Assembly: GCA_012401045.1 (NCBI GenBank)
Contig: GCA_012401045.1_4704.1
Reading direction: 5' to 3' (one strand)
Length of the DNA: 64,000 nucleotides
DNA from: a phage
The notes below the pieces were generated by a model. It was given only the letters and a program-made list of their open reading frames with translations, was not told where the DNA came from and searched no databases. The position numbers and the translations under genes were made by a program. Below are positions 1,786 through 60,439 of the stretch, in pieces (positions within the stretch are counted from its first letter, which is position 1; each line of letters begins with the position of its first letter).

Positions 1786-1803
1786 AAGCACTCCAAAATT
1801 CAT

Positions 1804-1825: not shown

Positions 1826-4800
1826 TTAAATTGTCGGTTTTACATCACGTAATAAGGCAATATAATAGCCTAATCCTCGGAGGATCTCCCCACTCCAGAA
1901 ACCAAAATACATTCCGTCTCTGCCGAGATTAGCGCTATCTGGTGCGGGACTCCACCCACCATTCATTACGTCATCAACGGTGTAGCGGTTGATGTAGTTT
2001 TCAACGATTTCATTATAAACGTTAACGGCAACAGGATAGCCTTTATCGTTGGGATGCCCATACAACATCGCTAACGACGCACCCGCTAACCATAATCCTG
2101 CCATGTGACCAGTAAAGTCGTTCGGGATAAAGGCAGGGGGTTTATCCATCGGAAAATCCGTAGGAGATTGATAAGCGTTTTCCTGTTGATACGTAAACAA
2201 GAAATCAATCCAATGGCTGATGTAAGTGGTTAACTTCTCAGGGACAGCTAAACCACGATCAAGCAGTCCAGCATAAAGCCTCACCGCTGAAAAGAAAGCC
2301 CTCGGCTGATAACCAGACCATGCTGTCTGATCGCCGAAATGGTACATCGTAAAATCATTAACTTTTGATCCGCTTGGCGCATCCCAACGATCCCACACGT
2401 ACGCACTTGCTCCTGGCCCTAAAACCCCGAATTTCTGATAATACCACTGCTGCGAGTCATACCAGAAATTCACAACATTCTGAATCATGAGGTCACGTCG
2501 TTCAGCCGATACGTCCATATCCAGGAAGACCCATGGATGTTGGTAGCCGGGATAAGGCTGACCACGCCAACTGTCGAACGTCGGTGCGTTAGGGATATAG
2601 TTGTTAGAGAACGGAATAATACCCGGAGTATAAGGCAATGGATCCAGACGTTGGTTGACAATCGTGCAATCGCCAACACGTAATGTTCCCTCCGCCTCAA
2701 AGGTTGCTTTTAACGTAAACAGCATGGTATATCCGTCATCCGTGGTGTAAGTTGACGGCGGATTGTTGATGGCGTAGAGCTTAAATACCCCCTCAGCGAT
2801 ATCGCTGTCGTCAGGCAAGAACAGAATTTCAGTTGAACCGTCGCCCCACACAGGTGCGGAAGGTTTAGGGTCAGTATCAGCATGGCCAGGTTGATACCCT
2901 GAGAGCCTCCATCCGTTCGCCGAAAGCGTCAATGTATTTCTTGCTGTGGTGGCCGGTAGCATATACCACCATCGCCAACCATTTGCATCTTCTACACGAA
3001 CGTTGTAGTCAATCGACGCGAAATAACTGACCTGCCTTACGATCTGTTTTGCGGTTGGATTGAATTCAAATTGTCCGCCTGCCGCAGTAAGCTGCGCTTT
3101 TAGGAACAACCCATCCCAGGAATCTTCCACCGCTTCGCTGAATTCTGTTGTGATTGCGATATCGTCTTTCCAGCCGACTTTATCAGCCGATATCAACACC
3201 GAACCTGTAACAGCATCACCGGTTGGTGTTGAAGCTTCATCAACCGCGTCAGCAGGAATCAACGAGCCTATTTTGAAATCCCATCCTTTCGGTTCAGCGC
3301 TGGAAGGTAATACCAGCTTGTACGTTTTGGCGTTCGCTTCGGTTTTGTCCAAAGAAAGCGATAATGAGATTTCAACCGGAATTGCAACGCCTGCTGTATC
3401 TTTACCTCCGCAGGTTATACGAAGAATTGAATCACGATTGACGCGGAACGGGATGGCCTGCTGTTCAAGGTAAATTTGTGCTGAAGATGCTTGAATCACG
3501 ATCCAGCCATCGGTATCACGCGTGATTGTAAACGGTGCTTTCGATGGGTATGTATACGTGTAAGCGATACCGTCGGTGTCGTAACGATCGGTTCCTTTTA
3601 CCTGACGGAAGAACTTATCGTTGGCGTCAATACGGGTATATTCTTCAATCGTGAACAAAGATGCCTTGTACGCTTTCTGATAACGCTCCTGCTGCGTTAA
3701 ACGGTATAAGGTGTATGCTGCTTCACAAAACCACTGTTCGGCGTCTGACGCGTTTCCCATGTAGTCTCTGGTGACCGGTACCTGGATCGGTCGGTTATGC
3801 TGACATTCGTTTGTTTTAATAAGGTATCCGCCGTATTCAACAGGAACACGGGGTGCCCATGCAACCAAGTAAGAACCATTGACGGATCTATCTTTGAGTA
3901 CGATGGTACCTACTTCATCGTCGGTACACGCTTCAAGATCGTCCCCGTCAGCACTTACGTAACGTTTTGTGCGTAACGCAACTTTCTCGATAGGAAACAC
4001 CGTACCCTTTGTATCCCAGTCGATCGTCCCATCATCATTGGTTTTGAACACATCCGCGTTCAAATTCTGCCAGCCGAGTTTACCCTCATAGACCTGAACA
4101 ACAAGATCCGTGTACTCCCCGAACGTGGGCGCACCGTGTGTTATTTTTCCAATACCGTTGGTGAATGTAACCGCTGTGTCATGGAAACCACCGTGTGTCG
4201 GATAATCGTCTTTTGCAAGAGGATAATGGGCCAGCACGGGTTGTTTACCATTAACAATCCAGTTAGCGATCCAGCGTGCCGGTGTATCCGGTGGTTCAAG
4301 GCCCGCATAGAACGCTTTTATATACGCATCGAACGATGACTCTGCTAATGTGAGATAATGCGCTTTAAGCTTGCTATCATCCGTTGTATGACTGAATATA
4401 CCGGCACCCAGAATTAACAACGACTGTCCTTCTGTTGTTGCGTCACCATCCGGTTGTGCTTCTTGTCGTGTTGCTGCAATGAAATGGCGGTTGTTTACCA
4501 TGACCCCGCTTTCATTTAACACGTAATGATCGGTTTCTGGATTGGTAAACGTTCCTGTATTTCGGGTTAAGAAGCTTGCATGACCATAACCAACGAAATT
4601 AACCGGCGACGCTGTAATCACCCATTTACCGATAAGTTGAGCAACATCATTATAACGCTCGGATGATGTGATTTGTTTCACGTACCAGTCTTTACGGTTG
4701 AATGTCCAGAGCAAGAAGTAATAGGTGGTATCGATTTTCATCACTGGGAACGTCGGTGTTAACGGCTCCAGCGTTAAGTAGTTGCTCCAGTCGATTTGTC

Positions 4801-5422
4801 CGCCAACAACCGATGGGGTAATCTCTAATAACTGACACCATTCATAACGGTCTGGTACACTACTGGACGTTGTTGGTAAAGGTAACTTGTATACACCAGT
4901 ACGATTCAGATTGAGTGCTTTTCTAGCCGATCCTAAATCAACATAAATGCTCGATGATGCGCTTGCACTATATGCCCCCAAAGCACCCAGCGTTGACCGA
5001 TACATTGAGATGAACAACGTATCTTTCCAATACGGATTATCCGTAACAGGCTCAAGTGCAATTTGTGCGGAGATGCTGTTCCATGTCCCTAACTGGTATG
5101 TCGCATTTAAAGATTCTTCCGTGAAATAACTTTCTGCAATCGCCAGATGGAACTGCTCGTTCAATAATGCGAGTGCCGCGCGACCAGTAACATCCTCATT
5201 ACCGGTTTCTTTTTTCATGATCGCGCCGAACGGAAACAGTGTCGCGAATGACCGTTTTGGTTTATTAACCGTAACCGTCCCCGTGTAGTTTCCAACACCA
5301 TCAAGTTTTTGACTATCGCCAACAGCAGTGACTGCGATACCATCAGCCGGGATATTTGTTTTATTTAGTATATTGAGTTGGTCAACCAGATCCTGCTTAT
5401 CGTCAGGTAAGAATGTCGCCAT
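1826..5422 (-). CDS. large hypothetical protein (1198 aa), possibly virion or fibre associated
   Basis: Long uninterrupted ORF with strong RBS (AAGGTGGAG) before ATG; sits between two fibre-like paralogues. No motif recognised. Confidence 0.5.
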   Translation of the reverse strand: MATFLPDDKQDLVDQLNILNKTNIPADGIAVTAVGDSQKLDGVGNYTGTVTVNKPKRSFATLFPFGAIMKKETGNEDVTGRAALALLNEQFHLAIAESYFTEESLNATYQLGTWNSISAQIALEPVTDNPYWKDTLFISMYRSTLGALGAYSASASSSIYVDLGSARKALNLNRTGVYKLPLPTTSSSVPDRYEWCQLLEITPSVVGGQIDWSNYLTLEPLTPTFPVMKIDTTYYFLLWTFNRKDWYVKQITSSERYNDVAQLIGKWVITASPVNFVGYGHASFLTRNTGTFTNPETDHYVLNESGVMVNNRHFIAATRQEAQPDGDATTEGQSLLILGAGIFSHTTDDSKLKAHYLTLAESSFDAYIKAFYAGLEPPDTPARWIANWIVNGKQPVLAHYPLAKDDYPTHGGFHDTAVTFTNGIGKITHGAPTFGEYTDLVVQVYEGKLGWQNLNADVFKTNDDGTIDWDTKGTVFPIEKVALRTKRYVSADGDDLEACTDDEVGTIVLKDRSVNGSYLVAWAPRVPVEYGGYLIKTNECQHNRPIQVPVTRDYMGNASDAEQWFCEAAYTLYRLTQQERYQKAYKASLFTIEEYTRIDANDKFFRQVKGTDRYDTDGIAYTYTYPSKAPFTITRDTDGWIVIQASSAQIYLEQQAIPFRVNRDSILRITCGGKDTAGVAIPVEISLSLSLDKTEANAKTYKLVLPSSAEPKGWDFKIGSLIPADAVDEASTPTGDAVTGSVLISADKVGWKDDIAITTEFSEAVEDSWDGLFLKAQLTAAGGQFEFNPTAKQIVRQVSYFASIDYNVRVEDANGWRWWYMLPATTARNTLTLSANGWRLSGYQPGHADTDPKPSAPVWGDGSTEILFLPDDSDIAEGVFKLYAINNPPSTYTTDDGYTMLFTLKATFEAEGTLRVGDCTIVNQRLDPLPYTPGIIPFSNNYIPNAPTFDSWRGQPYPGYQHPWVFLDMDVSAERRDLMIQNVVNFWYDSQQWYYQKFGVLGPGASAYVWDRWDAPSGSKVNDFTMYHFGDQTAWSGYQPRAFFSAVRLYAGLLDRGLAVPEKLTTYISHWIDFLFTYQQENAYQSPTDFPMDKPPAFIPNDFTGHMAGLWLAGASLAMLYGHPNDKGYPVAVNVYNEIVENYINRYTVDDVMNGGWSPAPDSANLGRDGMYFGFWSGEILRGLGYYIALLRDVKPTI

Positions 5423-5435
5423 TATTTACTCCACC

Positions 5436-6266
5436 TTAATCGTAACTAAAATAAAGTTTGCTGCTGACGCCGCTATCGGAATGAGGTTTTAATACCAGAA
5501 CAGAGCTTCCGAACGACGGAAGTATTGGAACGTTTAAATCGTTTGCGTCGGCAACTTTTCCATTATAAACGACACTGGCTGTAGTGATGAGTTCCCAAGC
5601 TAAGGTATAACTCATTGAAATCAGCGATGAGGCTAAACGGAATGCGTTGTATCCTTCGGGGGTATCTCCAACCGACATCGAACGTATCGCATCTTGCGGC
5701 GGTAAATTTAGCTTGATGCCGTAGGTACTGAAAGTATGGAAATCCCCTTGTTTACTATCTTCTGGATAATGCGAGGTTAGCGGTTCTCGCACCGTAATCA
5801 GTTCGCTAATATCGGTACTTACCGCTTTTCGAGCGAGGAATTGAAACGTACCGTACCACGATGCTGATGCATCAGAATGAACGGGAACAGCTATGGTTTT
5901 CTCGTCGCTTTCAAATTTAACCTGTGACACTAACGCTGAAGCATCAAAGATCGTTAAATCGATCTTCAACCCATACTTCTTAAACAGCTGCGTTAAGCAG
6001 TCTGCTGTCGTCGTTTTATCAGCAACGACAATAAAAGGTTGGTGTTTGATAAAGAGCTTGTTAATATCGCGACGTTGAAGATAAACCTGTACGGGGTCTT
6101 CGATATAGTAAGCCGATTGTGGTGTGGGGACTATAGAAAGGCGTAACCGACCTGATGCACCATACCAGGCTGGCGTTAACGTAACGTCTGACAGAGACAA
6201 CGGATGCTGGAGATAGGCGTTTATTTTAGATAACACTTCCTCCTGCCATGATGCTTCAGGATACAT
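5436..6266 (-). CDS. hypothetical protein sharing N-terminal domain with the DUF285 fibre-like proteins
   Basis: GAGGT RBS before ATG at 6266. Segment YLQRRDINKLF...KYGLKIDL aligns by eye with YVRRDIANAF...KYGINFDL of 31..1785 and YIRRDIAKNF...RYGLVFD of 43948..45402. Confidence 0.5.
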   Translation of the reverse strand: MYPEASWQEEVLSKINAYLQHPLSLSDVTLTPAWYGASGRLRLSIVPTPQSAYYIEDPVQVYLQRRDINKLFIKHQPFIVVADKTTTADCLTQLFKKYGLKIDLTIFDASALVSQVKFESDEKTIAVPVHSDASASWYGTFQFLARKAVSTDISELITVREPLTSHYPEDSKQGDFHTFSTYGIKLNLPPQDAIRSMSVGDTPEGYNAFRLASSLISMSYTLAWELITTASVVYNGKVADANDLNVPILPSFGSSVLVLKPHSDSGVSSKLYFSYD

Positions 6267-6319: not shown

Positions 6320-6383
6320 AGCCTCAAAAAAAAAAAACGAAAAAATAGGAAAACGGCGTTCATCCCTAAAAAGGATGAACGCC
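6320..6383 (-). terminator. intrinsic terminator (minus-strand sense)
   Basis: Perfect 11-bp stem 6355-6365/6373-6383 (GGCGTTCATCC...GGATGAACGCC), followed on the minus strand by a long T-run (A12 on plus strand at 6326-6337). Confidence 0.75.
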
Positions 6384-11526: not shown

Positions 11527-11546
11527 TAAGTAATATAGCCGTGAAA
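11527..11546 (-). promoter_or_regulatory. conserved upstream motif copy 1 (candidate phage promoter)
   Basis: Plus-strand TAAGTAATATAGCCGTGAAA, 20/20 identical to 41604-41623; minus-sense TTTCACGGCTATATTACTTA lies ~70 nt upstream of the start codon at 11456. Confidence 0.4.
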
Positions 11547-21874: not shown

Positions 21875-22133
21875 TTACGCCAGGCGGTACCACAATACCG
21901 GTACGAATCACAGCAGCAACTTCCTGCATGCCCTTACCCTTCAACGCATAGGTTTCATGTACCACATTACGTCGAGTCGTTAATCCAACAAATTTACATA
22001 CAACCATGTTGTTTTCTGAAAGATAAGCGGTGTCGAGTTCACCGTGCAACAATTCTTTTTCTTTGGTATCAATACCTAATAACGCAATTTGATAAGCAGA
22101 AAGTTTCCAATAACGCATAATCGTCCTATTCAT
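21825..22133 (-). CDS. hypothetical protein
   Basis: 102-aa ORF overlapping neighbours at both ends; start uncertain. Confidence 0.35.
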   Translation of the reverse strand: MNRTIMRYWKLSAYQIALLGIDTKEKELLHGELDTAYLSENNMVVCKFVGLTTRRNVVHETYALKGKGMQEVAAVIRTGIVVPPGVSDNLDEVLHGTRKTAR

Positions 22134-22953
22134 AAACTATCAAATATTCTGAAACCAAGTTTCTTGTTTCTACTTTTGCCGAAATCGTTCTTCGTACAGT
22201 TACGGGGTACAATTTTGTCGCCGAACTATAAATCTCTTCAGTCAACGCACAAGCACTGTTGCTAATGATTGTAGGAATTCCCCGCGAGCGCAAGTTGTCA
22301 GCCTTTTCTGCAAGATAACGATGATCGTCTAATGTAAACCCCTCTTGAGTATAGCCCGTAAACGATGCGGTGGGGGAAATGGGAATATAAGGAGGGTCGC
22401 AATAAACGACGTCACCCGGAACCACCTTTTCAAGATGCTTCTGGAACCCACCACTTACAATTTCTACCCCCCCCCCCTCGACGAAGGCAGCCTGAAGATG
22501 GTTCGCTGCCAGACGCAATTCCTGTTTCGGGAAATAGACGGTCTTATACCGCCCATGCGCAACATTAAATAAACCATCACGATTATAACGACATAAGCCA
22601 TTGAAACCGTAACGGTTTAAATACATGAAGCAAACTGCGCGTTCCCACGGATCTTCAGCGCGGTTAAAACGTTCACGTATCTCGTAGTAGCTTCTGACGT
22701 CGGTAGGATCCGTTTGAAAAAGACGTTCCACTTCTTCGATGAAAGATTCTGGACGCGCTAGCAACGCAGACCATACTGAGAGAATATCCTCATTCGCATC
22801 ACCTATCGAATACGCTGGGTACTTAAGAGCAAGCGTAACAGCGCCGGAACCAACGAATGGTTCAACAAGACGCTTTCCTTTAGGTAACACTTTTTCAAGC
22901 TCAGGGATAAGCCTGGTTTTGTTCCCAAGCCATTTAAGAAATGTTCTGCTCAT
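22126..22953 (-). CDS. dam: DNA adenine methyltransferase, Dam family
   Basis: N-terminal FLKWLGNK (Dam KWAGGK-like), EPFVGSGAV (FxGxG SAM motif) and catalytic DPPY; co-linear with E. coli Dam over its length. Contains an internal G11 tract. Confidence 0.85.
   Translation of the reverse strand: MSRTFLKWLGNKTRLIPELEKVLPKGKRLVEPFVGSGAVTLALKYPAYSIGDANEDILSVWSALLARPESFIEEVERLFQTDPTDVRSYYEIRERFNRAEDPWERAVCFMYLNRYGFNGLCRYNRDGLFNVAHGRYKTVYFPKQELRLAANHLQAAFVEGGGVEIVSGGFQKHLEKVVPGDVVYCDPPYIPISPTASFTGYTQEGFTLDDHRYLAEKADNLRSRGIPTIISNSACALTEEIYSSATKLYPVTVRRTISAKVETRNLVSEYLIVYE
22467..22477. repeat. homopolymeric C11/G11 tract inside the dam coding sequence
   Basis: Eleven consecutive C on the plus strand (G11 in gene sense) encoding E-G-G-G-V in frame. 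Confidence 0.9.
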
Positions 22954-30849: not shown

Positions 30850-31731
30850 TCAATAACAGTTATAATGGGTTCCAAGCCGCTCCGGTTTTCTCAGAAGACT
30901 ATCTTTAAGCGGTACGACGTCGATATCAACGTTTTCTGAATAATAACCATTAGAACTACCATACCAACGAATAACAACACATCCTTTTGCTGTACGAATA
31001 TGGTAAAACGTCCATCGCGTACGTTTGCAAAAGTCGTCATCCTCGTCTCTTTCCTCGGTTCTTTCTTCAGCGCTAAGTATCTTCTCACCAATAATGTCGT
31101 TAAGATCGCCATCGATGTCTTCAAGGTACACTTTTTCACAGCAATCTTGCTTATGGCAGAATTCAACAACGTTCCCATCGCCCCGATAGAAAAGAAGGGC
31201 AATACTGTATTGTAGCTGTTCGGCCGTTAAGTCTGTGGCGCAATACAAACTTTGATCTTCGGTTATCACCAAGACATTGTTGATTACGTGTCCGGCAAGC
31301 GCTCCGATCTTATTTACCGTGATAATCGGACGAACCGGTTCAGGTTGAACGATAGGGATACGAACACAGCCAATTAAAGCCATCCGTCCTTTCTTTGGTC
31401 TAACCGCAAGGTAAGGTGATTTTCTTGGGTGGTTATGTAGTCGTATTTCTACCTCGTTGAATTTAATCCCGTATATACCCAAAAACCGATCGAACAGTTT
31501 ATGAAATTCCTCGGTTGCCTCTTGCAGTGTGATGTTATTTACCGTGAGTTTATGTCCCCTGAACACCCGGGTTAAATCGATAACATCCAGTGTTTTGAAA
31601 TATATTTCCGTAAGGGGATGATCGGTGTTTTCCAGGTAAGTAATTGTTCTTTGAACCACGATTTTAGGTTGTGCACCTTTAAAACGTTTCAGGTATTTAA
31701 CACGATAACGGGTATGATCTGATGTTAACAT
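30850..31731 (-). CDS. hypothetical protein
   Basis: Track ORF trimmed to ATG at 31731 with GGAGAGGAG RBS, removing overlap with the upstream terminator hairpin. Confidence 0.5.
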   Translation of the reverse strand: MLTSDHTRYRVKYLKRFKGAQPKIVVQRTITYLENTDHPLTEIYFKTLDVIDLTRVFRGHKLTVNNITLQEATEEFHKLFDRFLGIYGIKFNEVEIRLHNHPRKSPYLAVRPKKGRMALIGCVRIPIVQPEPVRPIITVNKIGALAGHVINNVLVITEDQSLYCATDLTAEQLQYSIALLFYRGDGNVVEFCHKQDCCEKVYLEDIDGDLNDIIGEKILSAEERTEERDEDDDFCKRTRWTFYHIRTAKGCVVIRWYGSSNGYYSENVDIDVVPLKDSLLRKPERLGTHYNCY

Positions 31732-31789
31732 TTTAATCTCCTCTCCCGACTTCAGAGAATTCTTAAAATCCGTTAGTTTTGATAGACAG

Positions 31790-31827
31790 GATAAGACGGC
31801 ATAAAAGCCTCCCGTAATGGGAGGCTT
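31790..31827 (-). terminator. intrinsic terminator
   Basis: 9-bp stem AAGCCTCCC/GGGAGGCTT at 31805-31827 followed on the minus strand by UUUUAUGCC. Confidence 0.6.
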
Positions 31828-31838
31828 CATTAATCAGC

Positions 31839-41603: not shown

Positions 41604-41623
41604 TAAGTAATATAGCCGTGAAA
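41604..41623 (-). promoter_or_regulatory. conserved upstream motif copy 2 (candidate phage promoter)
   Basis: Identical 20-mer ~45 nt upstream of the start codon at 41558. Confidence 0.4.
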
Positions 41624-41702: not shown

Positions 41703-41737
41703 CTCCTCCCCAGGAAAGGTGTGGGGAGGAGTTTTTA
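41703..41737 (+). terminator. terminator-like hairpin plus T-tract in divergent intergenic region
   Basis: Stem CTCCTCCCC/GGGGAGGAG followed by TTTTTA on the plus strand, directly upstream of the SNF2 helicase gene. Confidence 0.45.
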
Positions 41738-41766: not shown

Positions 41767-43848
41767 ATGTTGGATAGAATCAATCGTCTAATGAACCGAA
41801 TAACGGTTAAAAATCAGAGTAACAATACCGTGCATATCGGGGGTATCGATGCCTGGCGTCTTTCAGATGACATTCAGCGAATATGGGGTACCTCCCGATT
41901 TACGAAACATATGTTTCGTAATTTCTCTTCTAGTGGACTCAGCCTCCACAACTTTTACCTCCCCGATTTCGTTTATATTCTCGAGACGATCATCGAAGCA
42001 AAGAATACCCGCAGTAACAAACGCATGCTGAAACACCTTATTGAGGTACTGCTACAGGAAACCTGGTTGCAAAATACCACAATCGAGCAACCTGCAATCC
42101 TCGATAAAGCACGCATGAACAAAATGCTAACGCTCTCTTTGTTCGATTATCAAGATGAGTTTATCGACATCTATAACCGTAACGTACCTAAATATCGACT
42201 GAAAGGATACGTGTGCGCGATGGGTGCCGGTGCGGGTAAAACGATCACCGCGTTGGCATTAAGCGCCGCAATGAACGTCGATGTATTTGTGGTCTGCTGT
42301 CCTAAGAACACGATGCGTTCAGCATGGCAATCCGATGTAAACAAAGCCATCGTTGACCCTGCAACAGAAACCGCGTTCTGGTCAGATACGATGCCACCAT
42401 CACAGCTGCAGAAAAGCGATAAGTACTATTTTCTGCATTACGAATCGATGGGTTTATTAAACGATGTAATGATCAAGCATAAACGCACCGCGAAGCGCGT
42501 GTTGATCGTGGTTGACGAAAGCCATAACTTCAACGACAAGAACAGCCAACGTTCCCAACGACTGGTTGATCTCGTACAGACGATGCGTCAGACCATGAAT
42601 GCGGATGTGCATGTCTTGTTTATGTCAGGTACGCCCGTTAAACAGATGGGTTCTGAGATGATCCCATGTTTAGGTTGTATCGACCCGATGTTCCAAGGAC
42701 AGGTGGTTGATAGCTTCAAAGCAATTTACGGTTTAACCAGCAGTCGCGCTAACGATATCCTCAGACATCGTCTTGGGTTCATGATGCATGTCGTACCTAA
42801 AGAAGCTTATCGTAAAACCCGGCCGGAAGTTCAGGATGTTTACGTGAAGCTCCCTAACGGTAGCGATTATACCATCTCAAGTATCCGCGACGACATGGCG
42901 ATATTTGTACGCGATCGGGCGAAGTATTACAAGGATAACTGGGGGCATTACAGAAAGATTTTTGATGACGCCTTGGACTACTATCGTAAGACTATTCGTA
43001 CCGACGGAGAACGTAAAGAGCTATCTCGATACGAATCGATTGTTGCTCGTTTCCAGAAAGGTTACGATCCCGTCAGAGACAAAGAAGATGCGATGTTCTG
43101 CAACACGTTTGAAAAACGTTCCATCATGCCGGTTCTTCCTTCTGATTTAAGAGTTGCTTTCAAAGACGCTAAGAGTGTCATCAAGTACGTTGGGTTGAAA
43201 ATTCAGGGTGAAGCGTTGGCACGTGTTCTAGGTGCAGCCCGCATTCAGTGTCATGTCGACATGGTGGAGTACATCGACTTCGAAGGGTACATCAACAACG
43301 CTGAAGCCAAAGTGTTGATCTTCACGTCGTACGTTCAGGTGGTTGAGCGCGTCGACAACCTGCTTCGCGATGCGGGTTTCTTACCTGAACCCATTTACGG
43401 GAAGACCAACAAAAACATCAACCAGATACTTGCTCGCTTACGGGACGATCCTGACAGCGGTCCCGCTATCGCAACATTTGATAGTTTAGCTGAAGGGGTT
43501 CCAATGTTGATGTGTAACGTGGGTCTCTTCTTGAACAATCCGTGGCGCTCATCCGATGAAATCCAGGCCATCAGCCGTCTCGACCGTGTAGGGCAAACAC
43601 AACCCGTTCGGATTTATCGTTTCATGTTAGATACAGGAAGCGAGGGTAACGTTTCTACACGCAGCCACGAAATCATGGAGTTAAGCCGACAGCTTGTTGA
43701 AGAAATCACGGGTGTCAAATACGTGGTGAACAAGCAAGACGATGTTAACTTGCAAGAAACGCTGGCGATGGAAGGATACGATCAATACGTTACCGTAAAC
43801 ACCACGGAATACGATATTAAACCACGACCTGCGTTCTTGGAATGGTGA
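41767..43848 (+). CDS. SNF2-family (SF2) helicase/ATPase
   Basis: Walker A GAGAGKT, Walker B/motif II VVDESHN, motif VI QAISRLDRVGQ. Track start 41719 is a GTG inside a hairpin; ATG at 41767 preferred, but its RBS is weak. Confidence 0.7.
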   Translation: MLDRINRLMNRITVKNQSNNTVHIGGIDAWRLSDDIQRIWGTSRFTKHMFRNFSSSGLSLHNFYLPDFVYILETIIEAKNTRSNKRMLKHLIEVLLQETWLQNTTIEQPAILDKARMNKMLTLSLFDYQDEFIDIYNRNVPKYRLKGYVCAMGAGAGKTITALALSAAMNVDVFVVCCPKNTMRSAWQSDVNKAIVDPATETAFWSDTMPPSQLQKSDKYYFLHYESMGLLNDVMIKHKRTAKRVLIVVDESHNFNDKNSQRSQRLVDLVQTMRQTMNADVHVLFMSGTPVKQMGSEMIPCLGCIDPMFQGQVVDSFKAIYGLTSSRANDILRHRLGFMMHVVPKEAYRKTRPEVQDVYVKLPNGSDYTISSIRDDMAIFVRDRAKYYKDNWGHYRKIFDDALDYYRKTIRTDGERKELSRYESIVARFQKGYDPVRDKEDAMFCNTFEKRSIMPVLPSDLRVAFKDAKSVIKYVGLKIQGEALARVLGAARIQCHVDMVEYIDFEGYINNAEAKVLIFTSYVQVVERVDNLLRDAGFLPEPIYGKTNKNINQILARLRDDPDSGPAIATFDSLAEGVPMLMCNVGLFLNNPWRSSDEIQAISRLDRVGQTQPVRIYRFMLDTGSEGNVSTRSHEIMELSRQLVEEITGVKYVVNKQDDVNLQETLAMEGYDQYVTVNTTEYDIKPRPAFLEW

Positions 43849-43854
43849 TTAAGA

Positions 43855-43890
43855 AGCTCTGCCTGACATCAGGCAGAGCTTTATGCTGTA
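43855..43890 (+). terminator. intrinsic terminator after SNF2 helicase gene
   Basis: Perfect 11-bp stem AGCTCTGCCTG/CAGGCAGAGCT with 4-nt loop, followed by TTTATGCTGTATTTGTT. Confidence 0.75.
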
Positions 43891-43947: not shown

Positions 43948-45402
43948 ATGAAACTTAAACAAAGCTGGAAAGACGAACTTCTCGCGTTAGTAAACAGCAA
44001 AAACAGTTTACAACTGACATTAGACGATGTAAAATTTGAACTAACGGCACCGGTAAGCGAAGTGCCTGGAACGGTCGTTGTTACAATCAAACCGAACGAT
44101 AATAGTCGCTACTTTAACGAGCAGTCTCTGACCTACATCCGTCGAGACATCGCTAAAAACTTCACTGGGATCCCGTTACGGGTCATCGTTAAAAAAGATA
44201 CCGCTGTAAGGGATATCATCAATACGATTGCTGAACGTTACGGATTGGTATTTGACACAGCCGTCGACTTCCTCGAATCCGAGCTGAATAAACAAATTAC
44301 GTTCGCAGACACCGGTATTAAAGACATTACGGTTCCGGTTGCAAACACGTCTTATGTTTGGGCGGGTAATCTTCAGTTCAATATTGCTAACGATACGTTA
44401 AGCTTGATTACTATCATCAAGAAAACCGATCTTACGAATCTGGTTTATCTGGATGGTGTTGAAGCTGACACATCTGGTTCGTTACTATTAGCAACCGCAG
44501 CACTTGTTAACGAACACGTAAATGAACCGATGGTTGAAAACGAAGATATCGTTAATGAATTTATTAACGTTCTTAATACTCTAGCCAAATATGGTGACAT
44601 AACCGGCGATGAATTAGATGCCGCCTTACAAGCGTACGATGAAGCAGAAAACAGGAATAAAACCACGGTAATAACTCTTGGTGATATCCAGTGTGTTGCA
44701 ACAGAAAAAGACGATTGGGAAATTGGACGTTTACGCGGTCAGATGGTTCTCGCGCTCAAATCCGATAAATACCCGGAGCCCGATAACACGTTCAGGTTGT
44801 TTACGAATGGTGGTGACGTATCGCTAACGTTAAACACAATGAAAGATATAAGTATCGATTGGGGTGATGGGAATAAAGTAACGTTGGATGCTGAAGAAAG
44901 ATACGCGCACCACACATACGCCGACAATAACCAGTACCAAATCGAAATTGTGTCTCGTACGGACCCAGATGTGCTGCGACCAAATTATATTTCTGGGAGT
45001 GAGATAACCGAAGTAATTCACTGGGCTACTACTTCAACAATAGCTCTGAATTTTGTTGGATGCGATAATTTAGCGACTGTTCCAGATGAGATCCCAACTT
45101 CGTGGACAACGTTGGACAGCATGTTTGAAAGTTGTACGAATTTGAATGATCCGTCTATCTCTAACTGGAATACAAGTAACATCACATCAATGAATGGTAT
45201 GTTCGGCGGATGCACTAAATTTAACCAACCTTTAGCTGCCTGGGATGTCAGCTCAGTAACTGACATTGGTGGTATGTTTAACGGATGCAACAGTTTTAAC
45301 CAAGATTTAAGTGGGTGGCGATTACCGTCAGGAGTAACCCACGACAATTACGATAGTGGTGCTTTCTCGTGGCAGACGGAACATAAACCGACGTTCCAGT
45401 AA
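43948..45402 (+). CDS. DUF285/BspA-like repeat protein, paralogue of 31..1785
   Basis: N-terminus KLKQSWKDELLALVNSKN parallels STVYPEWKADLLALVNRKN; C-terminal repeats NWNTSNITSMNGMF...FNQPLAAWDVSSVTDIGGMFNGCNSFNQDLSGW. Confidence 0.65.
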   Translation: MKLKQSWKDELLALVNSKNSLQLTLDDVKFELTAPVSEVPGTVVVTIKPNDNSRYFNEQSLTYIRRDIAKNFTGIPLRVIVKKDTAVRDIINTIAERYGLVFDTAVDFLESELNKQITFADTGIKDITVPVANTSYVWAGNLQFNIANDTLSLITIIKKTDLTNLVYLDGVEADTSGSLLLATAALVNEHVNEPMVENEDIVNEFINVLNTLAKYGDITGDELDAALQAYDEAENRNKTTVITLGDIQCVATEKDDWEIGRLRGQMVLALKSDKYPEPDNTFRLFTNGGDVSLTLNTMKDISIDWGDGNKVTLDAEERYAHHTYADNNQYQIEIVSRTDPDVLRPNYISGSEITEVIHWATTSTIALNFVGCDNLATVPDEIPTSWTTLDSMFESCTNLNDPSISNWNTSNITSMNGMFGGCTKFNQPLAAWDVSSVTDIGGMFNGCNSFNQDLSGWRLPSGVTHDNYDSGAFSWQTEHKPTFQ

Positions 45403-45462
45403 AAAAAAAATAGTTAGCCTATCTTCCTCCCTACCCATAACGGGCGGGGAGGAAGGTTTTAT
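45401..45462. terminator. bidirectional terminator between convergent genes
   Basis: A10 run, stem CTTCCTCCC/GGGAGGAAG, then TTTT; sits between the plus gene ending 45402 and the minus gene ending 45474. Confidence 0.65.
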
Positions 45463-45473
45463 GGCGTTATGAC

Positions 45474-45812
45474 TTAGAACCAGAGTTCTTTCATGAAGTA
45501 GGCTTCCGTATCGTAGATAAGCCACTCATCAGGGATTTCTAAAGGATCGTCTTCGGTTAAGGTGAGCATGTGCAGGGCGAACGCACGCTTAATATCTTCC
45601 AACAGCTTATCATCACCGTAACCTTCGGGTAGTTTACGGTCAGCCAGCTGAGTTTGTTTATAGACATCGCGGAACGCTTCAGGATTATGTTTATCCATCG
45701 GGAATTGTTCAGCAGCCTGAACCATCGAAAGCGTCCAGCTTACAACATTGTAACGCTCACCGTTAATTTCACTGAACTGATCATCGATTAAACAGATTTG
45801 TTGTATATTCAT
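45474..45812 (-). CDS. hypothetical protein
   Basis: 112-aa ORF; convergent with 43948..45402 across a shared terminator. Confidence 0.45.
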   Translation of the reverse strand: MNIQQICLIDDQFSEINGERYNVVSWTLSMVQAAEQFPMDKHNPEAFRDVYKQTQLADRKLPEGYGDDKLLEDIKRAFALHMLTLTEDDPLEIPDEWLIYDTEAYFMKELWF

Positions 45813-46770: not shown

Positions 46771-49032
46771 TTACAATTCAAAATCTTCATCGATAACACG
46801 CTGGGTAAGCACTTTGTCGCTGAAGAACTCCACCTTGCGCTGATGGTATTTACGGTGCGCTTCGATAGAAGTACATACCAGATACCAGAACGTTGGCGTC
46901 ATTCCTTCAAACTTTCCTTTCAGCTGACGCAGTCGCCCCAACACCTGAATGTTACCGGTTCGTGACCCCATCGCTAATGTCATGAACGTCATCACCAAGT
47001 CAGGAAGGTCGATACCTGTACCTGCCGATTTCACCGTTGTAACGCTAATATCGTTATCCAGCAAGACCATGAAATCTTCTTCAGCGGTATAAGGACCGAT
47101 CTCTAACTCAGGGATACGTTCACTGAGATAATGCGACAACGACTTACACATATCGACGGTTGCACAATACACCAGCATCTTCATACCTTCCTGATACTGG
47201 TTCATGAAACCCTTGATAATAACGGTATAGATGAAGTTAAAATACGCGAGTTTGAGTTGCTTGTTCTTCATGATAGACTGTTCGAATATCGTGTGTGAAT
47301 AAGCTCCACCAAACCCTTTGTATCTGACTTTATCTGTACTGCGTAGTCGGTACGTTACCGCATTTACCGCAATGTATTTCTTGTATTCGCCTTTCGCATA
47401 ACGAGCTTCTTTCGGATACATCAAATACAGCATCTGTTCGATAAACGGATCATCGGATACCGCTGTTGCCGACAGATAAATGATTTCCGGAATATTGGCG
47501 TAACACTTGACCTTAAACAAGAAATGCAATGCTTCGTGACACTCGTCATGAATCAGCAAACCTATGCCGGTCTTTTCCCAAAACTCAGCGGGATGAAAGG
47601 CATATGGCGCAACGCAGTTATTCTTCTCGTAGTCCGCAATATAACGTTGGAACATGTTCAAGGAGAACAATGCGATTTTAAAGTCGAGTTCACCTTGTTC
47701 AACCAAGGTTTGAAACTCCAACATACTGTAACGAGGAATGTCGGGATGCGGTGGATCCTCCTTAGCGTTCCCGCGTATCTCGATAACGTCCCCTGGTTCC
47801 ATCCCGAAGAAGTTCAGCAGTGAGCTTCGCCAACCTGGCATATACCGTGGAGAAAGTATAATGCCTGTGCGCACACCCCGTCTGAACACGATTTCCTGCG
47901 ACATCGCGGTGTTATGCGTGACGATGTGGTCTTTAATAACATAAAGGCTTTCGTCATTGTCCACCGTGATGCAACGTGCTTTCGCTTTCACTGTCGGTAC
48001 GATGCTATCAATCGCTAAACCAGGAAGCCGGTTAACGGGGAGATCGTCTGGAACCTCAATGTCGTCAGGAATAAGCTTACGCAAATCGGAATGATAAATT
48101 AATGTCTCCATCGTGTAACTATCGATGGGGCATTTATACGCGATTCCTCCTAACTGATAAGCCAACTCCCAAACCTTGGCCGTTATCTGCGAATCGACGG
48201 TTCTGACCGCAAGGTGAGCTTGCCCGTTTCTGATTCTCAGTTCACAGCGACCTTTGATTACCGCCTTAAATTCCTCGATACCGACGAGTTCTTTCGGTTC
48301 GTAAAGTCGGATTCTTATTGGACGAGATCGAGCAGGTCTGTCGTAAAGACATTCCATGATTTCGTCCGTGCTGAGAACCTTATCGGGGTCAGTACACCGC
48401 CAGAGATGATCGCCACACGCTTCAACCATCCTACCGTCTTCAAAGAAGATAGCATGAAGCTGAATATCGTCATGATCAAATATAGCGGTTACGTTCGTCG
48501 GTAACCCATCCGCACCAACAACCTGATCCCCTACCTGAAGCTCACCAATCGGCTTCCAACCTCCTGGAACCTTCACGGGTGTGGTAAGCCGTACCGCTTT
48601 CCCTGACCCCGTTTGAGCGGTGTTTAGGCTCATTCTGAAGGGGGTATCCTTACCCCCGTCCATGTACTCCAACCATTCTTGCTGATCTTCACGCCATGGA
48701 AACTTCCATTTCTTTACGAACTCCACTTCTTTACCTGGTACCGGATCGTGATAGACGATTTCCAACCACTCTTTTCGTATCCCTCGGGAAAAGATAAAAT
48801 CCAAAAACGATTTCAACTGTTCACGGAGTAAGTATACCTCGCTATAATCGCTTCTTGCCGCGGCATACGTGTTTATGGTATCGGTAACCATTCTCCGTGT
48901 ACGAGGGTCACGCCGTTTCCTCAGATGCAAACAACGGTCTCGAAGGTAATGGCCGATAAGATGGGCAAATCGAAGTCCGTATCCGCTCAGCCTCATGCCA
49001 TGCGAGAAGACGTCGATACGAGCTAACTTCAT
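46771..49032 (-). CDS. SF2 DExH-type helicase with an intein-like insertion in the P-loop
   Basis: AQTGSGK then ~229-aa insertion then TAMSQ (reconstituting GSGKT); downstream DECH (motif II), SAT (motif III) and QVLGRLRQ (motif VI). Confidence 0.6.
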   Translation of the reverse strand: MKLARIDVFSHGMRLSGYGLRFAHLIGHYLRDRCLHLRKRRDPRTRRMVTDTINTYAAARSDYSEVYLLREQLKSFLDFIFSRGIRKEWLEIVYHDPVPGKEVEFVKKWKFPWREDQQEWLEYMDGGKDTPFRMSLNTAQTGSGKAVRLTTPVKVPGGWKPIGELQVGDQVVGADGLPTNVTAIFDHDDIQLHAIFFEDGRMVEACGDHLWRCTDPDKVLSTDEIMECLYDRPARSRPIRIRLYEPKELVGIEEFKAVIKGRCELRIRNGQAHLAVRTVDSQITAKVWELAYQLGGIAYKCPIDSYTMETLIYHSDLRKLIPDDIEVPDDLPVNRLPGLAIDSIVPTVKAKARCITVDNDESLYVIKDHIVTHNTAMSQEIVFRRGVRTGIILSPRYMPGWRSSLLNFFGMEPGDVIEIRGNAKEDPPHPDIPRYSMLEFQTLVEQGELDFKIALFSLNMFQRYIADYEKNNCVAPYAFHPAEFWEKTGIGLLIHDECHEALHFLFKVKCYANIPEIIYLSATAVSDDPFIEQMLYLMYPKEARYAKGEYKKYIAVNAVTYRLRSTDKVRYKGFGGAYSHTIFEQSIMKNKQLKLAYFNFIYTVIIKGFMNQYQEGMKMLVYCATVDMCKSLSHYLSERIPELEIGPYTAEEDFMVLLDNDISVTTVKSAGTGIDLPDLVMTFMTLAMGSRTGNIQVLGRLRQLKGKFEGMTPTFWYLVCTSIEAHRKYHQRKVEFFSDKVLTQRVIDEDFEL
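47911..48597 (-). mobile_element. putative intein (Hint domain, about 229 aa) within the helicase gene
   Basis: N-terminal AVRLTTPVKVPGGWKPIGELQVGDQVVGADG resembles Hint block A; C-terminal RCITVDNDESLYVIKDHIVTHN followed by Thr resembles blocks F/G (HN plus nucleophile). Confidence 0.5.
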
Positions 49033-57059: not shown

Positions 57060-58646
57060 TTAGAAGTTGCCTTTGGTAGTTACCGCATCCACCAGGTTAA
57101 ACAAATCAACGCTCAGCTTATACACCTCCTGCTGGCTACGGTTGAGCAGCGGGCTGTATGCAGATGGGTTGATGTTCGGCATGGTGTACGGAATCGGTGC
57201 AGAACCGTCAACGCTGATCTTGAACTGGCTGTCCAGGAACAGGTTAATCGCGCCGCTCACCATAACCGCATTCGGGTTGTTGCCCAACATGGAGGGTAGG
57301 ATATTGGTAATCATGTCAGAACGCATTTGTTCAGCAGCACGGTTACAATCGTATCCTTTAATGAACGGCACAGCGTCGGTAACCGCAACCGCCCACTGAC
57401 CAGGCATGATACCGAGTTCTGGGTGACCATGGTTGTCAGCAATGAAACGGAACGATTCCAACATGCGGTATGTCATCGCAGCAGGCATCATTGCAGCAAG
57501 CGATGAACAATACAGCGTTGGATAATCGATCACATCCCAGCTCTGGCTATCGGTCGGCATCCAACCAAACTCGGTGGTTGCTGATGTACCACGACGAGCT
57601 TCCACATACGGGAATAACGTTAAGACATCACGGATATGTTCACCGAACATCCGTTTCATGTCAGCCCAACTCAGGCTACCGCTGAAAGCGAATCCTTCAT
57701 CACGCATAATCGCACCGAATACCGGATGCGCAACCAGAGGTTCTTCACGAACAGCTTGAGCGGCTTCCACGTAAATATCCTCGTTCTCTGCGCTACCTGG
57801 ATGAGACCCGCTTTCGTACGTCTGACGAATAGCACCAACATTATCGAAGGCTTTTCTTAGATAAATGGTTGGGATGTTCGTATCGGCACTAGCGGGTTTG
57901 ATTTTCTCTGTTGCGAAACACATTGCCGCTTCCACACCACGGAAAACCGGTTCCGGTTGCGGTGGGTAGGATGTACGATGAACCACATCAGCGTAGGCGG
58001 GATCGAACTGTTGCATCACGTTCTGCATGGCTGGGTCCATGAACTGGTTATCAAAACCACCATTGCCTACCCAACGTGCTGTTGATGCATAGGTCAGCGT
58101 ATCCTGAACACGAGTACTGAACTGAACATCACGATTAACAGGGTCGTATGCGCCGGTCAACAGGTTCGTTGCGTCCATCGGGGTTGCACGAACGATTTGC
58201 TTACCGAACATATCCGTTGTGGTTGTTTCGGTTACCTGGATTACGTTCGTGAAGAAGAACACCAGTTCATTCGGCAGATCGATAGCACGCGTTGTAAACG
58301 CATCGAGGCTTACAGAATGGTCGGTGTATCCAGAAATGTAATGGACACGCTTGGTTCCTGGTGCGAGGGCCAAGGATTCTTCTACCGCCATCATGAAATG
58401 GAAACGGCGTGTGCCCCAACCATTCGCAATCTCCGAAACCCCCTCAGGTTCTGCAGACTGCTGCAACAAACCGGTTGCAAGCTTATTGATTGCTGATGGT
58501 GTTGTTGCCGTACCGAACCGCGTCGTGTTAATGAAGTCTTCGATGCTACGCATGCTATCTGCGTGGAATCGTAGTGGACGACGTTGTACGTTGTTGTACG
58601 GTGCGGTTTCAACCATCAGTATTTCACGAACATTCATCGGGATCAT
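57060..58646 (-). CDS. hypothetical protein (528 aa)
   Basis: AAGAGGA RBS then A-run before ATG; coupled to the upstream gene (ATGA overlap). Confidence 0.5.
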   Translation of the reverse strand: MIPMNVREILMVETAPYNNVQRRPLRFHADSMRSIEDFINTTRFGTATTPSAINKLATGLLQQSAEPEGVSEIANGWGTRRFHFMMAVEESLALAPGTKRVHYISGYTDHSVSLDAFTTRAIDLPNELVFFFTNVIQVTETTTTDMFGKQIVRATPMDATNLLTGAYDPVNRDVQFSTRVQDTLTYASTARWVGNGGFDNQFMDPAMQNVMQQFDPAYADVVHRTSYPPQPEPVFRGVEAAMCFATEKIKPASADTNIPTIYLRKAFDNVGAIRQTYESGSHPGSAENEDIYVEAAQAVREEPLVAHPVFGAIMRDEGFAFSGSLSWADMKRMFGEHIRDVLTLFPYVEARRGTSATTEFGWMPTDSQSWDVIDYPTLYCSSLAAMMPAAMTYRMLESFRFIADNHGHPELGIMPGQWAVAVTDAVPFIKGYDCNRAAEQMRSDMITNILPSMLGNNPNAVMVSGAINLFLDSQFKISVDGSAPIPYTMPNINPSAYSPLLNRSQQEVYKLSVDLFNLVDAVTTKGNF

Positions 58647-60235
58647 TTTATTTTTTTTCCTCTTAAATTTACTACGTGTTCATTTAATCGAACAACTAAT
58701 TGCACAAGCTGCTGACGGATATCTGCTGGACAAAGCATCAATCCTTTACGGTCAGCTGGGACTTTCTCAAGGATTTCCGGGCCTGCTGCTGAAACATCCC
58801 AGTCCCATTCACAAAACGCATCGGCCACCATGTTAATACCGACAACCGGTAAAGTTGTACGTTCATCTTCATACATGGCGTGTGGATACAATTTATTGAC
58901 AGTAATGATCTCCTGTGGTTTTAATTGGTGGATAATCTGATAAACATCGTCGCGTTTGACCTGGATACCTACGGTCAGCGCGGCCAGTTGAGGAAAACCC
59001 CAATGGTCTAACAAACAAGCTGCGATCGCTAACGCTTTTGCCTGATGCACGGCTTCAATCGGTGCCAGACTTCTCGCCGGAAGATGGCTATCAAGCAACC
59101 ATTGCGCCAGTGCTCGGCATCCGCGGTTGATTGGTTTTAACTCAACGGTGTCATCGTGTTTAGCGTACGTGTATCCGTCGTAACGTTTTGCGATACGCGC
59201 ATACATGTCTTCAACTTTACCGTAAGGTGCCGTTTCGTCGACGTCGTGCAACACACGTTCCATCTGGGTAAGATACGCAATGTCGAGAATGAGTACACGT
59301 GGTGAACGTTTATCTTTCACCATCAACGCATCAATCACGCCTTGACTGTCTTCATCTTGCGCATTCCCTCGCGGCGTTTTCTCGCGAATCGGTCCGCTGA
59401 AACGTCGTTCCGTACAAAGGTTATTCACATAGCTGAAGATCAGTGTTACTAGATGCGTACAACTCACTAACACCCCATCTTTAACGACAGGCTGTACAGC
59501 TTGGTCCAAGTCGCGTACGGCGAGACGGCGGACGATGGCTTGTGAACGCAACCAGCCGGGCACTTTCTCCGTCGACATGTAATCCACGGTCATCGACAGC
59601 GTGATCTTTTTATCACCCGTCTGTGCGCGGATATAGTCTTCCAGTCGGTCGTAAGCGGCGATATCATGAATGCGTGTTTTATACATCAACGACATAGCCA
59701 CTTCTTCTTTACGAACCGTTCCGTACGTTTTCCCTGCGTCAATCAGAAACTCTGCCCAAATCGGCACCATCAGACGGACGTAGATCGCTAACGCCGTTAA
59801 CTCAACGTAATCATTTCGTAAATAGGTTTTCTCAGGTATGTCATCCTCACCTAATGTTGTTTTCATGTCCGGTGGTAATTTTACCCAACCTGGGGTATTA
59901 CACAATGCCAGAATCTCTTCGTACACAACCGGTTTGTAAATTTCACCAACAGCGCGACTCAACTCCTCCATTTGTTGTTGTGGAGCAATGTAGTTATCCA
60001 TCGCTTCACGTGCTTTAACGAACCCTTCGAAGATGTCGTCAATTCGACGTGGGTTCTTTTGTTCTATCCAGGCGAGATACTTGTTAATCTCCCGCATCTG
60101 ATTGCTAGCCATATCCCCATCAATCTTGATGTAACCCTGACCTGAAAATTCCACAGTACGTCCATCACGGTGTTTGATGAGATAGTGATCCAGCTTTTCT
60201 TTTCCTTGCGTCGTAATGACGGGCACTATGTGCAT
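58643..60235 (-). CDS. hypothetical protein
   Basis: Track ORF trimmed to ATG at 60235 with AGAGG RBS; conserved motif ~56 nt upstream. Confidence 0.5.
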   Translation of the reverse strand: MHIVPVITTQGKEKLDHYLIKHRDGRTVEFSGQGYIKIDGDMASNQMREINKYLAWIEQKNPRRIDDIFEGFVKAREAMDNYIAPQQQMEELSRAVGEIYKPVVYEEILALCNTPGWVKLPPDMKTTLGEDDIPEKTYLRNDYVELTALAIYVRLMVPIWAEFLIDAGKTYGTVRKEEVAMSLMYKTRIHDIAAYDRLEDYIRAQTGDKKITLSMTVDYMSTEKVPGWLRSQAIVRRLAVRDLDQAVQPVVKDGVLVSCTHLVTLIFSYVNNLCTERRFSGPIREKTPRGNAQDEDSQGVIDALMVKDKRSPRVLILDIAYLTQMERVLHDVDETAPYGKVEDMYARIAKRYDGYTYAKHDDTVELKPINRGCRALAQWLLDSHLPARSLAPIEAVHQAKALAIAACLLDHWGFPQLAALTVGIQVKRDDVYQIIHQLKPQEIITVNKLYPHAMYEDERTTLPVVGINMVADAFCEWDWDVSAAGPEILEKVPADRKGLMLCPADIRQQLVQLVVRLNEHVVNLRGKKIK

Positions 60236-60290
60236 AACAACCTCTTTTCGCGGTTCCCTGTTAAAACGTCTTCTGTGACGTCTACCACAA

Positions 60291-60310
60291 AGGTAATATA
60301 AGCGTGAATA
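60291..60310 (-). promoter_or_regulatory. conserved upstream motif copy 3 (candidate phage promoter)
   Basis: AGGTAATATAAGCGTGAATA shares the GTAATATA-N3-GTGAA core; ~56 nt upstream of the start codon at 60235. Confidence 0.35.
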
Positions 60311-60439
60311 ATTTTGGATTCCGGCTGAGTTATCGCTCAGCATGCAAGGCATCCCGCCGAAGCGAGACACCTTGCACTAACGGAAAATATTCGCGTTACC
60401 TTCTGAATCGAAGACTCAGAATGCGATGCTAAAGCATGA

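Follow-up and report, generated by a model that had tools for sequence, protein, structure and literature searches.

A DUF7941–DUF285 Protein with a Conserved N-Terminus and an Exchanged C-Terminus at the gp161 Locus of a Goslar-Like Jumbo Phage

DUF7941 is a chimallivirus-specific protein family, best described in Escherichia phage vB_EcoM_Goslar, for which a cryo-electron microscopy structure and virion mass spectrometry have been reported (bioRxiv 10.64898/2026.04.21.720040). Ten Goslar proteins belong to the family (gp22, 23, 31, 33, 34, 86, 91, 92, 93, and 161), three of which (gp86, gp92, and gp161) carry an N-terminal DUF7941 module followed by carbohydrate-binding, hydrolase, or leucine-rich repeat (LRR) domains. 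Purified gp22 forms filaments in negative stain and pairwise AlphaFold 3 predictions are given; the same authors, in this April 2026 preprint, proposed a “DUF7941 fibre cloud” on the peripheral baseplate for host recognition (bioRxiv 10.64898/2026.04.21.720040), its anchoring being extrapolated from phiKZ gp127, the N-terminal domain (NTD) of which was modelled in the outer peripheral baseplate (PDB 9XQD; PMC13250141). Here we describe the gp161 orthologue (43948..45402, plus strand) of a related phage, encoded in a 64,000-nt stretch of DNA (the window; NCBI GenBank assembly GCA_012401045.1, contig GCA_012401045.1_4704.1). The family, the domain layout of gp161, and the host-recognition hypothesis were published before, and our step forward is incremental: we add the allelic cassette structure of the gene with its junction at the interdomain linker, the presence/absence polymorphism of a longer paralogue (paralogue B), and a transcriptional account of the placement of the gene.

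Megablast matched the window to Goslar (NC_048170), a nucleus-forming jumbo phage, with window positions 1789-64000 collinear with Goslar 103564-164487 at 90-97% nucleotide identity. Homologues of the RNA polymerase beta-subunit genes gp165 and gp171 lie in the window and the chimallin gene lies outside it. Open reading frame (ORF) calling gave boundaries of exactly 43948..45402 on the plus strand, with an ATG start and a 484-aa product (hereafter the window protein) comprising DUF7941, PKD-like, and DUF285/LRR regions. The gene occupies the position of Goslar gp161 (HOV27_gp161, YP_009820846.1), which it resembles in strand, neighbouring genes, flanking hairpins, annotated terminators, and domain order. 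The two proteins are 61% identical overall, but this average conceals a division between residues 1-180 (97% identical) and residues 181-484 (31-49%). The breakpoint is sharp: nucleotide identity to Goslar drops from 93-100% to ~45% within a single 60-nt interval (~44481-44540), with the break itself at ~44495, and is back to ~90% after 45430. The drop in nucleotide and protein identity delimits an exchanged C-terminal cassette at 44495..45400 (plus strand; aa ~183-484). An earlier note on this DNA had suggested that the gene could be a recently acquired cassette; this does not hold for the gene as a whole, as locus, orientation, and the first 180 codons are conserved in Goslar and ~55 orthologue clusters, and the exchange is confined to the stretch downstream of codon ~183.

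The same division is apparent across the wider orthologue family. A search over 5.8 billion proteins returned ~55 cluster representatives of 480-485-aa orthologues and ~46 of the 579-590-aa type of paralogue B, many of them from contigs of 235-248 kb, and the orthologue set analyzed comprised 57 proteins including the window protein and Goslar gp161. Residues 1-180 are 86-99% identical across this set, with the NTD (aa 1-160) averaging 96% (minimum 86%) and the linker 94%; the segments beyond the linker average 75% (aa 181-285), 61% (PKD-like), and 73% (LRR), and column entropy rises about six-fold at residue 181. Clustering the C-terminal parts at 60% identity produced three groups, which puts the number of discrete types at three or more: a Goslar type (n=52; 51 cluster representatives and Goslar gp161), a window type made up of P0001-P0003 and the window protein, and a third represented by P0004 alone. 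Judged from these sequences, the window holds a rare C-terminal allele of the gp161 locus, shared with P0001-P0003 among ~57 representatives. We considered and rejected the possibility that the cassette arose from paralogue B by gene conversion: over its three successive segments it is 31/44/41% identical to paralogue B versus 33/34/49% to Goslar gp161. Being about equally distant from both, it is an old allele and not a recent conversion from B. Relatives of 276 and 271 aa that appear truncated (P0074, P0083, P0118) look like partial or frameshifted ORFs, not a split-gene architecture.

The window protein matches Pfam DUF7941 (PF25613) at aa 4-189 (89.5 bits; gathering cut-off 27) and DUF285 (PF03382) at aa 387-461 (90.1 bits; gathering cut-off 25), and matches TIGR02167 in two stretches (50.7 bits vs. 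a cut-off of 30) as well as PHROG 1037 and 2935, both of which are annotated as “virion structural protein.” An AlphaFold2 model built from 65 sequences (mean predicted local distance difference test [pLDDT] 84.5) is a string of globular domains in which the NTD is followed by a linker (164-175), a helical/beta region (179-271), a beta-sandwich (280-340, pLDDT > 90), and a C-terminal LRR solenoid (350-484, pLDDT 95-97). In BFVD its fold is matched by virion structural proteins of chimalliviruses and by BspA-type LRR proteins of phages.

The globular NTD (aa 1-160; 43948..44427, plus strand) has block-mean pLDDT values of ~67-88. Its top Foldseek match in the PDB is 9xqd_0 from the phiKZ outer peripheral baseplate (E = 2.5e-4, prob 1.00, TMt 0.57, 22% identity over 150 columns), a 150-residue chain corresponding to the NTD of phiKZ gp127. 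This protein was reached by fold search only, phmmer similarity being too low, and a sequence search of the PDB with the whole window protein found nothing relevant (best match transketolase, E = 0.54). Like phiKZ gp127 (with gp126), the window protein has this NTD fold, and it probably shares the NTD-linker-C-terminal domain organization. It differs in that phiKZ gp127 is ~290 aa long and lacks an added PKD-like or LRR module. From its conservation and fold we infer that aa 1-160 form a conserved docking or anchor module.

The linker (aa 161-180; 44428..44487, plus strand) is predicted to be disordered, with pLDDT < 50 at aa 164-175, and is highly conserved across the orthologues despite this low pLDDT, including a GSLLLAT motif with relatives in paralogue B (GSLTLAT) and, far looser, in Goslar gp086 (VELLIA). 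The helical and beta region that follows (aa 181-285; 44488..44802, plus strand) was delimited by AlphaFold2 secondary structure and paralogue alignment; it aligns with the C-terminal sub-domain of DUF7941 in gp22, gp33, gp34, and gp93, which suggests that it corresponds to that sub-domain, although the Pfam match ends at profile position 195/276 and leaves aa 181-285 largely outside. The region is missing from a natural variant (P0109) in which the NTD is joined straight to the PKD-like domain. The latter (aa 286-350; 44803..44997, plus strand) is an all-beta sandwich of pLDDT > 90 with a WGDGN...HTYAD motif, and is named PKD-like only, since its PKD_4 match is below the Pfam threshold (E = 0.013, 16 bits vs. 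27). The DUF285/BspA-type LRR region (aa 351-484; 44998..45399, plus strand) consists of three canonical 25-residue repeats with capping turns. It shares its repeat family (the 26-residue TIGR02167) and solenoid fold with BspA/DUF285 surface proteins of Mycoplasma, Listeria, Bacteroidota, and archaea, and PKD domains also occur in the cellular DUF285 matches P0105 and P0114. The cellular proteins differ, however, in being 700-850 aa long, rich in repeats, and secreted or lipid-anchored, whereas the window protein has a three-repeat module on a phage-specific, presumed docking domain.

On balance we favour the interpretation that the window protein is a late, virion-associated adhesin, the N-terminus of which docks into the DUF7941/baseplate network and the C-terminus of which is a replaceable host-binding module. 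The DUF7941 NTD and the conserved linker would dock the protein into the network of DUF7941 filaments and peripheral baseplate, at a site analogous to that of phiKZ gp127 at the end of the gp139 band in each baseplate “star lobe.” The C-terminal part (DUF7941 C-terminal sub-domain, PKD-like sandwich, and three-repeat BspA-type LRR) would then lie outside the virion and point outward to bind a host-surface structure, with the PKD-like domain as spacer and the short LRR as host contact. Since the need to fit the virion would fall on the N-terminal 180 residues alone, everything distal to the linker could be replaced when related phages recombine, giving rise to discrete alleles. The protein is like the modular receptor-binding proteins (RBPs) of tailed phages such as T4 gp37/gp38 and the S-type fibres of P1 and Mu in that its N-terminus is invariant, its C-terminal alleles are mosaic, and the recombination junction coincides with a domain boundary. 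Unlike these, it has no fibre repeats, trimeric beta-helix, or coiled coil and no fibre or tailspike Pfam match; there is no adjacent chaperone gene, the downstream gene being convergent and unrelated; and its proposed attachment is to a filament network and not to a baseplate socket. It therefore resembles an RBP in its evolution but is not classed as a tail fibre, since the architecture and chaperone gene are wanting.

Several observations weigh against this interpretation. We know of no ligand for any phage DUF285 domain, and an experimental one was not among the titles and abstracts of the literature searched. LRRs more often bind proteins than the polysaccharides that are usual in first contact, and the LRR of the window protein is short, at three repeats. 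E. coli and Salmonella assemblies alike include contigs with either C-terminal type, and allele and host genus are not linked in any simple way. The putative DUF7941 C-terminal sub-domain is swapped along with the LRR, which is unexpected if it is needed for docking onto a conserved partner. The Goslar cryo-electron microscopy maps show no DUF7941 protein, leaving the baseplate location to extrapolation from phiKZ gp127. Finally, chimallin, a non-virion protein, was estimated at ~126 copies in the same preparation in which gp161 was detected, and large non-virion assemblies co-purified (bioRxiv 10.64898/2026.04.21.720040), so that co-purification at a similar copy number does not prove incorporation of gp161.

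The quantities themselves bear on two other explanations. In CsCl-purified Goslar virions gp161 was identified by 27 peptides (53.8% coverage) and estimated at 111 copies per virion (range 74-174; Table S4, bioRxiv 10.64898/2026.04.21.720040), which provides protein-level support, in the orthologue, for expression of the gene. Estimates for other proteins are ~112 copies for gp33, ~43 for the gp90 tail fibre, ~5 for gp92, gp93, and gp86, ~1 for gp91, ~10.6 for the gp160 helicase, and ~2,700 for gp22 and gp23 together (bioRxiv 10.64898/2026.04.21.720040). A figure of ~111 per preparation far exceeds six baseplate sites, as would be expected if the protein were a structural or adhesive part of the DUF7941 filament network without a role in receptor recognition, its PKD-like and LRR domains cross-linking filaments or virion parts. 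In a variant of this explanation the protein tethers the virion to its environment, such as mucus or gut particles, as has been suggested for Ig-like decoration proteins, and specificity resides in classical tail fibres. Separate classical fibres are indeed at hand: a 1265-aa protein with Phage_tail_fib, Phage_fiber_2, and Peptidase_S74 matches adjoins paralogue B in the relative L012, and Goslar has a P1 S-like fibre with an assembly protein. PKD and Ig-like domains are typical of accessory adhesion, and the occurrence of both C-terminal alleles in both host genera fits as well. A pure cross-linker, however, would be expected to co-evolve with conserved partners and to remain conserved, whereas discrete C-terminal types, a sharp junction, and a near-invariant N-terminus are the signature of specificity modules. 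We consider a purely structural role unlikely.

The contaminated preparation would also suit a protein that is packaged and ejected along with the phage DNA, or one made late within the cell that co-purifies; its LRR would then be directed at an intracellular protein of the host or the phage. Many proteins are packaged and injected by chimalliviruses (bioRxiv 10.64898/2026.04.21.720040), and the neighbouring late gene encodes the virion-associated helicase quantified above. We nevertheless regard this as very improbable, given that the NTD has a homologue in a protein seen on the exterior of the phiKZ baseplate, that extracellular surface proteins are the typical setting of DUF285/BspA repeats and of PKD domains, and that rapid allelic turnover fits an exposed surface module.

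Returning to the adhesin interpretation, a more specific and tentative form of it is that gp161-type and 584-aa B-type proteins are interchangeable tip adhesins capping DUF7941 filaments, in which the NTD would accept the linker and C-terminal sub-domain of the preceding protomer and leave the LRR distal and free. If so, the ~111 copies of gp161, with gp33 about as abundant, compared with ~2,700 of gp22 and gp23 combined would imply many short filaments, not six micron-long ones, and cassette polymorphism together with the presence or absence of B would be a main strain-level host-range switch, acting in the widespread Goslar-like jumbo phages of Salmonella, E. coli O157, and Shigella isolates.

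The placement of the gene is conspicuous because the surrounding genes run on the minus strand. As the earlier note had observed, it is one of very few plus-strand genes; the only other long one in the window is that of an SNF2/DEAD-like helicase immediately upstream (41767..43848; Pfam ResIII/SNF2/Helicase_C), the homologue of Goslar gp160, the start of which we take as the ATG at ~41767 (MLDRINRL) in agreement with the 693-aa product in the relatives L008-L011. The strong terminators said to bracket the gene were also recovered as hairpins. An intrinsic-terminator-like hairpin in the helicase/gp161 gap (43853..43882, plus strand) has a 13-bp stem (-23.7 kcal/mol, z = -5.4) followed by UUUAU, and a terminator is annotated at the corresponding site in Goslar. 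The second (45421..45456, both strands) lies between 43948..45402 (plus) and the convergent gene 45474..45812 (minus), folds at -29.3 kcal/mol on the plus and -26.7 on the minus strand (z about -4), and is preceded by an A10 run and followed by UUUUAU, features with which it could act as a bidirectional terminator. A consensus terminator scanner missed both hairpins, probably because A-U pairs that extend the stems leave too few T's in the tail window.

Transcript data for Goslar indicate what these hairpins separate. In RNA-seq at 30 min with and without chimallin knock-down (bioRxiv 10.1101/2023.09.20.558163, Supplementary Table 2), gp161 and gp160 fell by log2 fold changes of -4.8 to -6.1 and -5.1 to -5.8, respectively, comparable with the gp086-gp093 cluster (-3.2 to -6.6) and the major capsid protein (~-4), and the flanking minus-strand genes gp158, gp159, and gp162-gp166 were unchanged. 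This response identifies gp160 and gp161 as a nucleus-dependent (late) island in an early block. In the knock-down, 195-288 reads mapped to gp162 versus 6-21 over the 1.45-kb gp161 region (bioRxiv 10.1101/2023.09.20.558163), indicating that early minus-strand transcription stops at the hairpin between them. We explain the plus-strand placement between hairpins as a means of shielding a late gene pair from the early transcription around it, and by analogy the helicase and gp161 homologues of the window would form the same island among early minus-strand genes. With late mRNA and protein in virion preparations, the expression of the gene that the earlier note had left in question is supported in the Goslar orthologue. 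The generalization that every plus-strand gene is late fails, as Goslar gp145 and gp172 were unaffected by the knock-down (the libraries were perhaps not strand-specific).

Promoter searches were less informative. A sigma-70 scan found fewer promoter-like sites than in shuffled sequence; chimalliviruses transcribe with their own RNA polymerases. A late-promoter motif common to the upstream regions of the gp161, helicase, and gp093 homologues was looked for, and nothing convincing emerged; a TATG motif of phiKZ is too short to be informative in such a comparison. On the minus strand the motif TTTCACGGCTATATTACTTA[G/C]GTGA occurs at 11530-11545 and 41607-41622, with a variant at 60293-60308. The two exact TTTCACGGCTATATTACTTA motif copies are intergenic and upstream of minus-strand genes, the copy at 41607 lying ~50 nt upstream of an HD-domain gene that diverges from the helicase/gp161 pair; the variant at 60293 is inside a GTG-started ORF (58643..60370), yet upstream of the shorter gene of Goslar length. 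The extended 16-mer has only three sites in the window versus 0.47 expected, and TATATTAC alone is not enriched there (3 matches vs. 2.6 expected). We note TTTCACGGCTATATTACTTA[G/C]GTGA as a candidate early (virion RNA polymerase) promoter. Two further hairpins were noted. One, at 6337-6368 on the minus strand, is very strong (71-nt fold at -28.4 kcal/mol, z = -6.1) and has a long T run after it; it stands between the homologues of gp094 (early) and gp093 (late), both on that strand, and marks the early/late boundary in the Goslar RNA-seq. The other, GC-rich and on the plus strand upstream of the helicase (41703-41737; -21.7 kcal/mol, z only -1.0 vs. shuffles), is followed by UUUUUAU and has no plus-strand gene before it; a terminator is annotated there in Goslar, and it might block antisense read-through or form part of a late 5' leader.

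The window contains a second DUF7941-DUF285 protein, paralogue B (31..1785, minus strand), of 584 aa with DUF7941, PKD-like, and seven-repeat DUF285 regions. Its ORF runs 31..1803, but the second ATG at 1785 is preceded by GGAG and gives the 584 aa of most homologues, and is the likely true start. That the two genes are DUF285 paralogues on opposite strands was borne out by BLASTP (46% identity over 449 aa, E = 9e-123). The resemblance had been placed in the N-terminal domain with a diverged repeat region; the similarity is genuine but it is not limited to the NTD (57% identity), extending through the middle (31%), PKD-like (44%), and LRR (41%) segments over the full length. Paralogue B shares the four-part architecture of the window protein and lies in a late cluster of fibre and DUF7941 genes. 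It differs in its seven canonical 25-residue repeats against three, the four extra repeats accounting for the ~100-residue difference in length, in its minus-strand position inside the gp086-gp093 fibre cluster, and in its variable presence. It is absent from Goslar and from the IMG/VR contig L013 and present in L012, which comes from the sole assembly on record with an identical B protein and has the gene order gp093-like, gp092-like, B, gp091-like, the 1265-aa fibre, gp086-like. At the B site, L015 has a 175-aa gp091/B chimera, and Goslar has its P1 S-like fibre and assembly protein. Between the homologues of gp092 and gp086 lies a hot spot in which the presence of B, the chimera, and long tail fibres all vary (L012-L015). 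B-type proteins are almost as frequent in the collection as gp161 orthologues, and they and window-type orthologues are found on contigs of matching size. These comparisons identify B as the gene that varies in presence among relatives, and under the adhesin interpretation it would be a second such adhesin with a longer LRR, found only in some relatives.

These data also allow an appraisal of the idea that the gp161 gene arrived on a recently acquired cassette as a second, alternative RBP, conferring dual host specificity together with 31..1785. The two proteins differ at 59% of aligned LRR positions and in repeat number, they belong to separate transcription units as the earlier note had stated, the C-terminal 300 residues are exchanged relative to Goslar, and assemblies from both Salmonella and E. 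coli contain the identical protein, all of which would suit such a scenario. The locus is, however, ancestral to the Goslar group, being present with like neighbours in Goslar and ~55 orthologue clusters, and the gene that is variable in presence is B. The paralogues are true and their layout is RBP-like, as had been proposed, but they are two of at least ten DUF7941 members, so “two alternatives” understates the system. We consider recent acquisition of an alternative RBP improbable.

Other DUF7941 genes lie close to paralogue B. The Goslar gp093 homologue (5436..6266, minus strand; 276 aa) is a third paralogue, with a Pfam DUF7941 match of 41.2 bits (cut-off 27) and 31% identity to aa 1-156 of the window protein (tblastn, E = 8e-12). 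The adjacent homologue of Goslar gp092, a tail protein (1826..5422, minus strand; 1198 aa), is 97% identical to its counterpart. Its assignment to DUF7941 comes from the preprint only (bioRxiv 10.64898/2026.04.21.720040), as neither Pfam nor tblastn detected the domain in 1826..5422.

Segments of the window elsewhere also depart from Goslar. An SF2 helicase homologous to gp164 (46771..49032, minus strand) has 753 aa versus 524 aa owing to a 229-aa in-frame insert (~47914-48598) located exactly within the Walker A motif (GSGK|T). The insert opens with AVRLTTPVKV, closes with ...IVTHN followed by T, and has no Pfam match; it resembles a mini-intein, with Ala1 as the N-terminal residue and HN/T at the C-terminal junction. 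It is present in the relatives L008-L010 and absent from L011 and Goslar. An 850-bp segment missing from Goslar encodes a 275-aa D12-class N6-adenine DNA methyltransferase (22126..22953, minus strand; Pfam E = 1e-59), and a ~900-bp segment likewise missing encodes a 326-aa DUF7448 protein (30850..31830, minus strand).

At least 24 public contigs, some of 238-240 kb, encode a protein identical to the window protein, and their source records name Salmonella enterica and E. coli, including O157. This is compatible with a broad host range and proves nothing. Near-complete Goslar-like genomes (contigs of 235-248 kb) are frequent in surveillance assemblies labelled Salmonella enterica, E. coli O157, Shigella, and Enterobacter, and also in Logan/ENA, which suggests that these lytic jumbo phages persist in a carrier state or are widely co-isolated with bacteria of clinical and food origin. 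Neither complete E. coli genomes nor plasmids yielded a megablast match to the locus, indicating that these phages are not recorded there as replicons.

Shielding of the genome from host defences that target DNA makes nucleus-forming jumbo phages attractive for therapy, and their host-range determinants are poorly understood. In natural populations the gp161 locus behaves like a specificity module, with an invariant, presumed docking domain, discrete swapped C-terminal alleles, and a clean junction at the linker, and codon ~183 is a concrete site for engineering.

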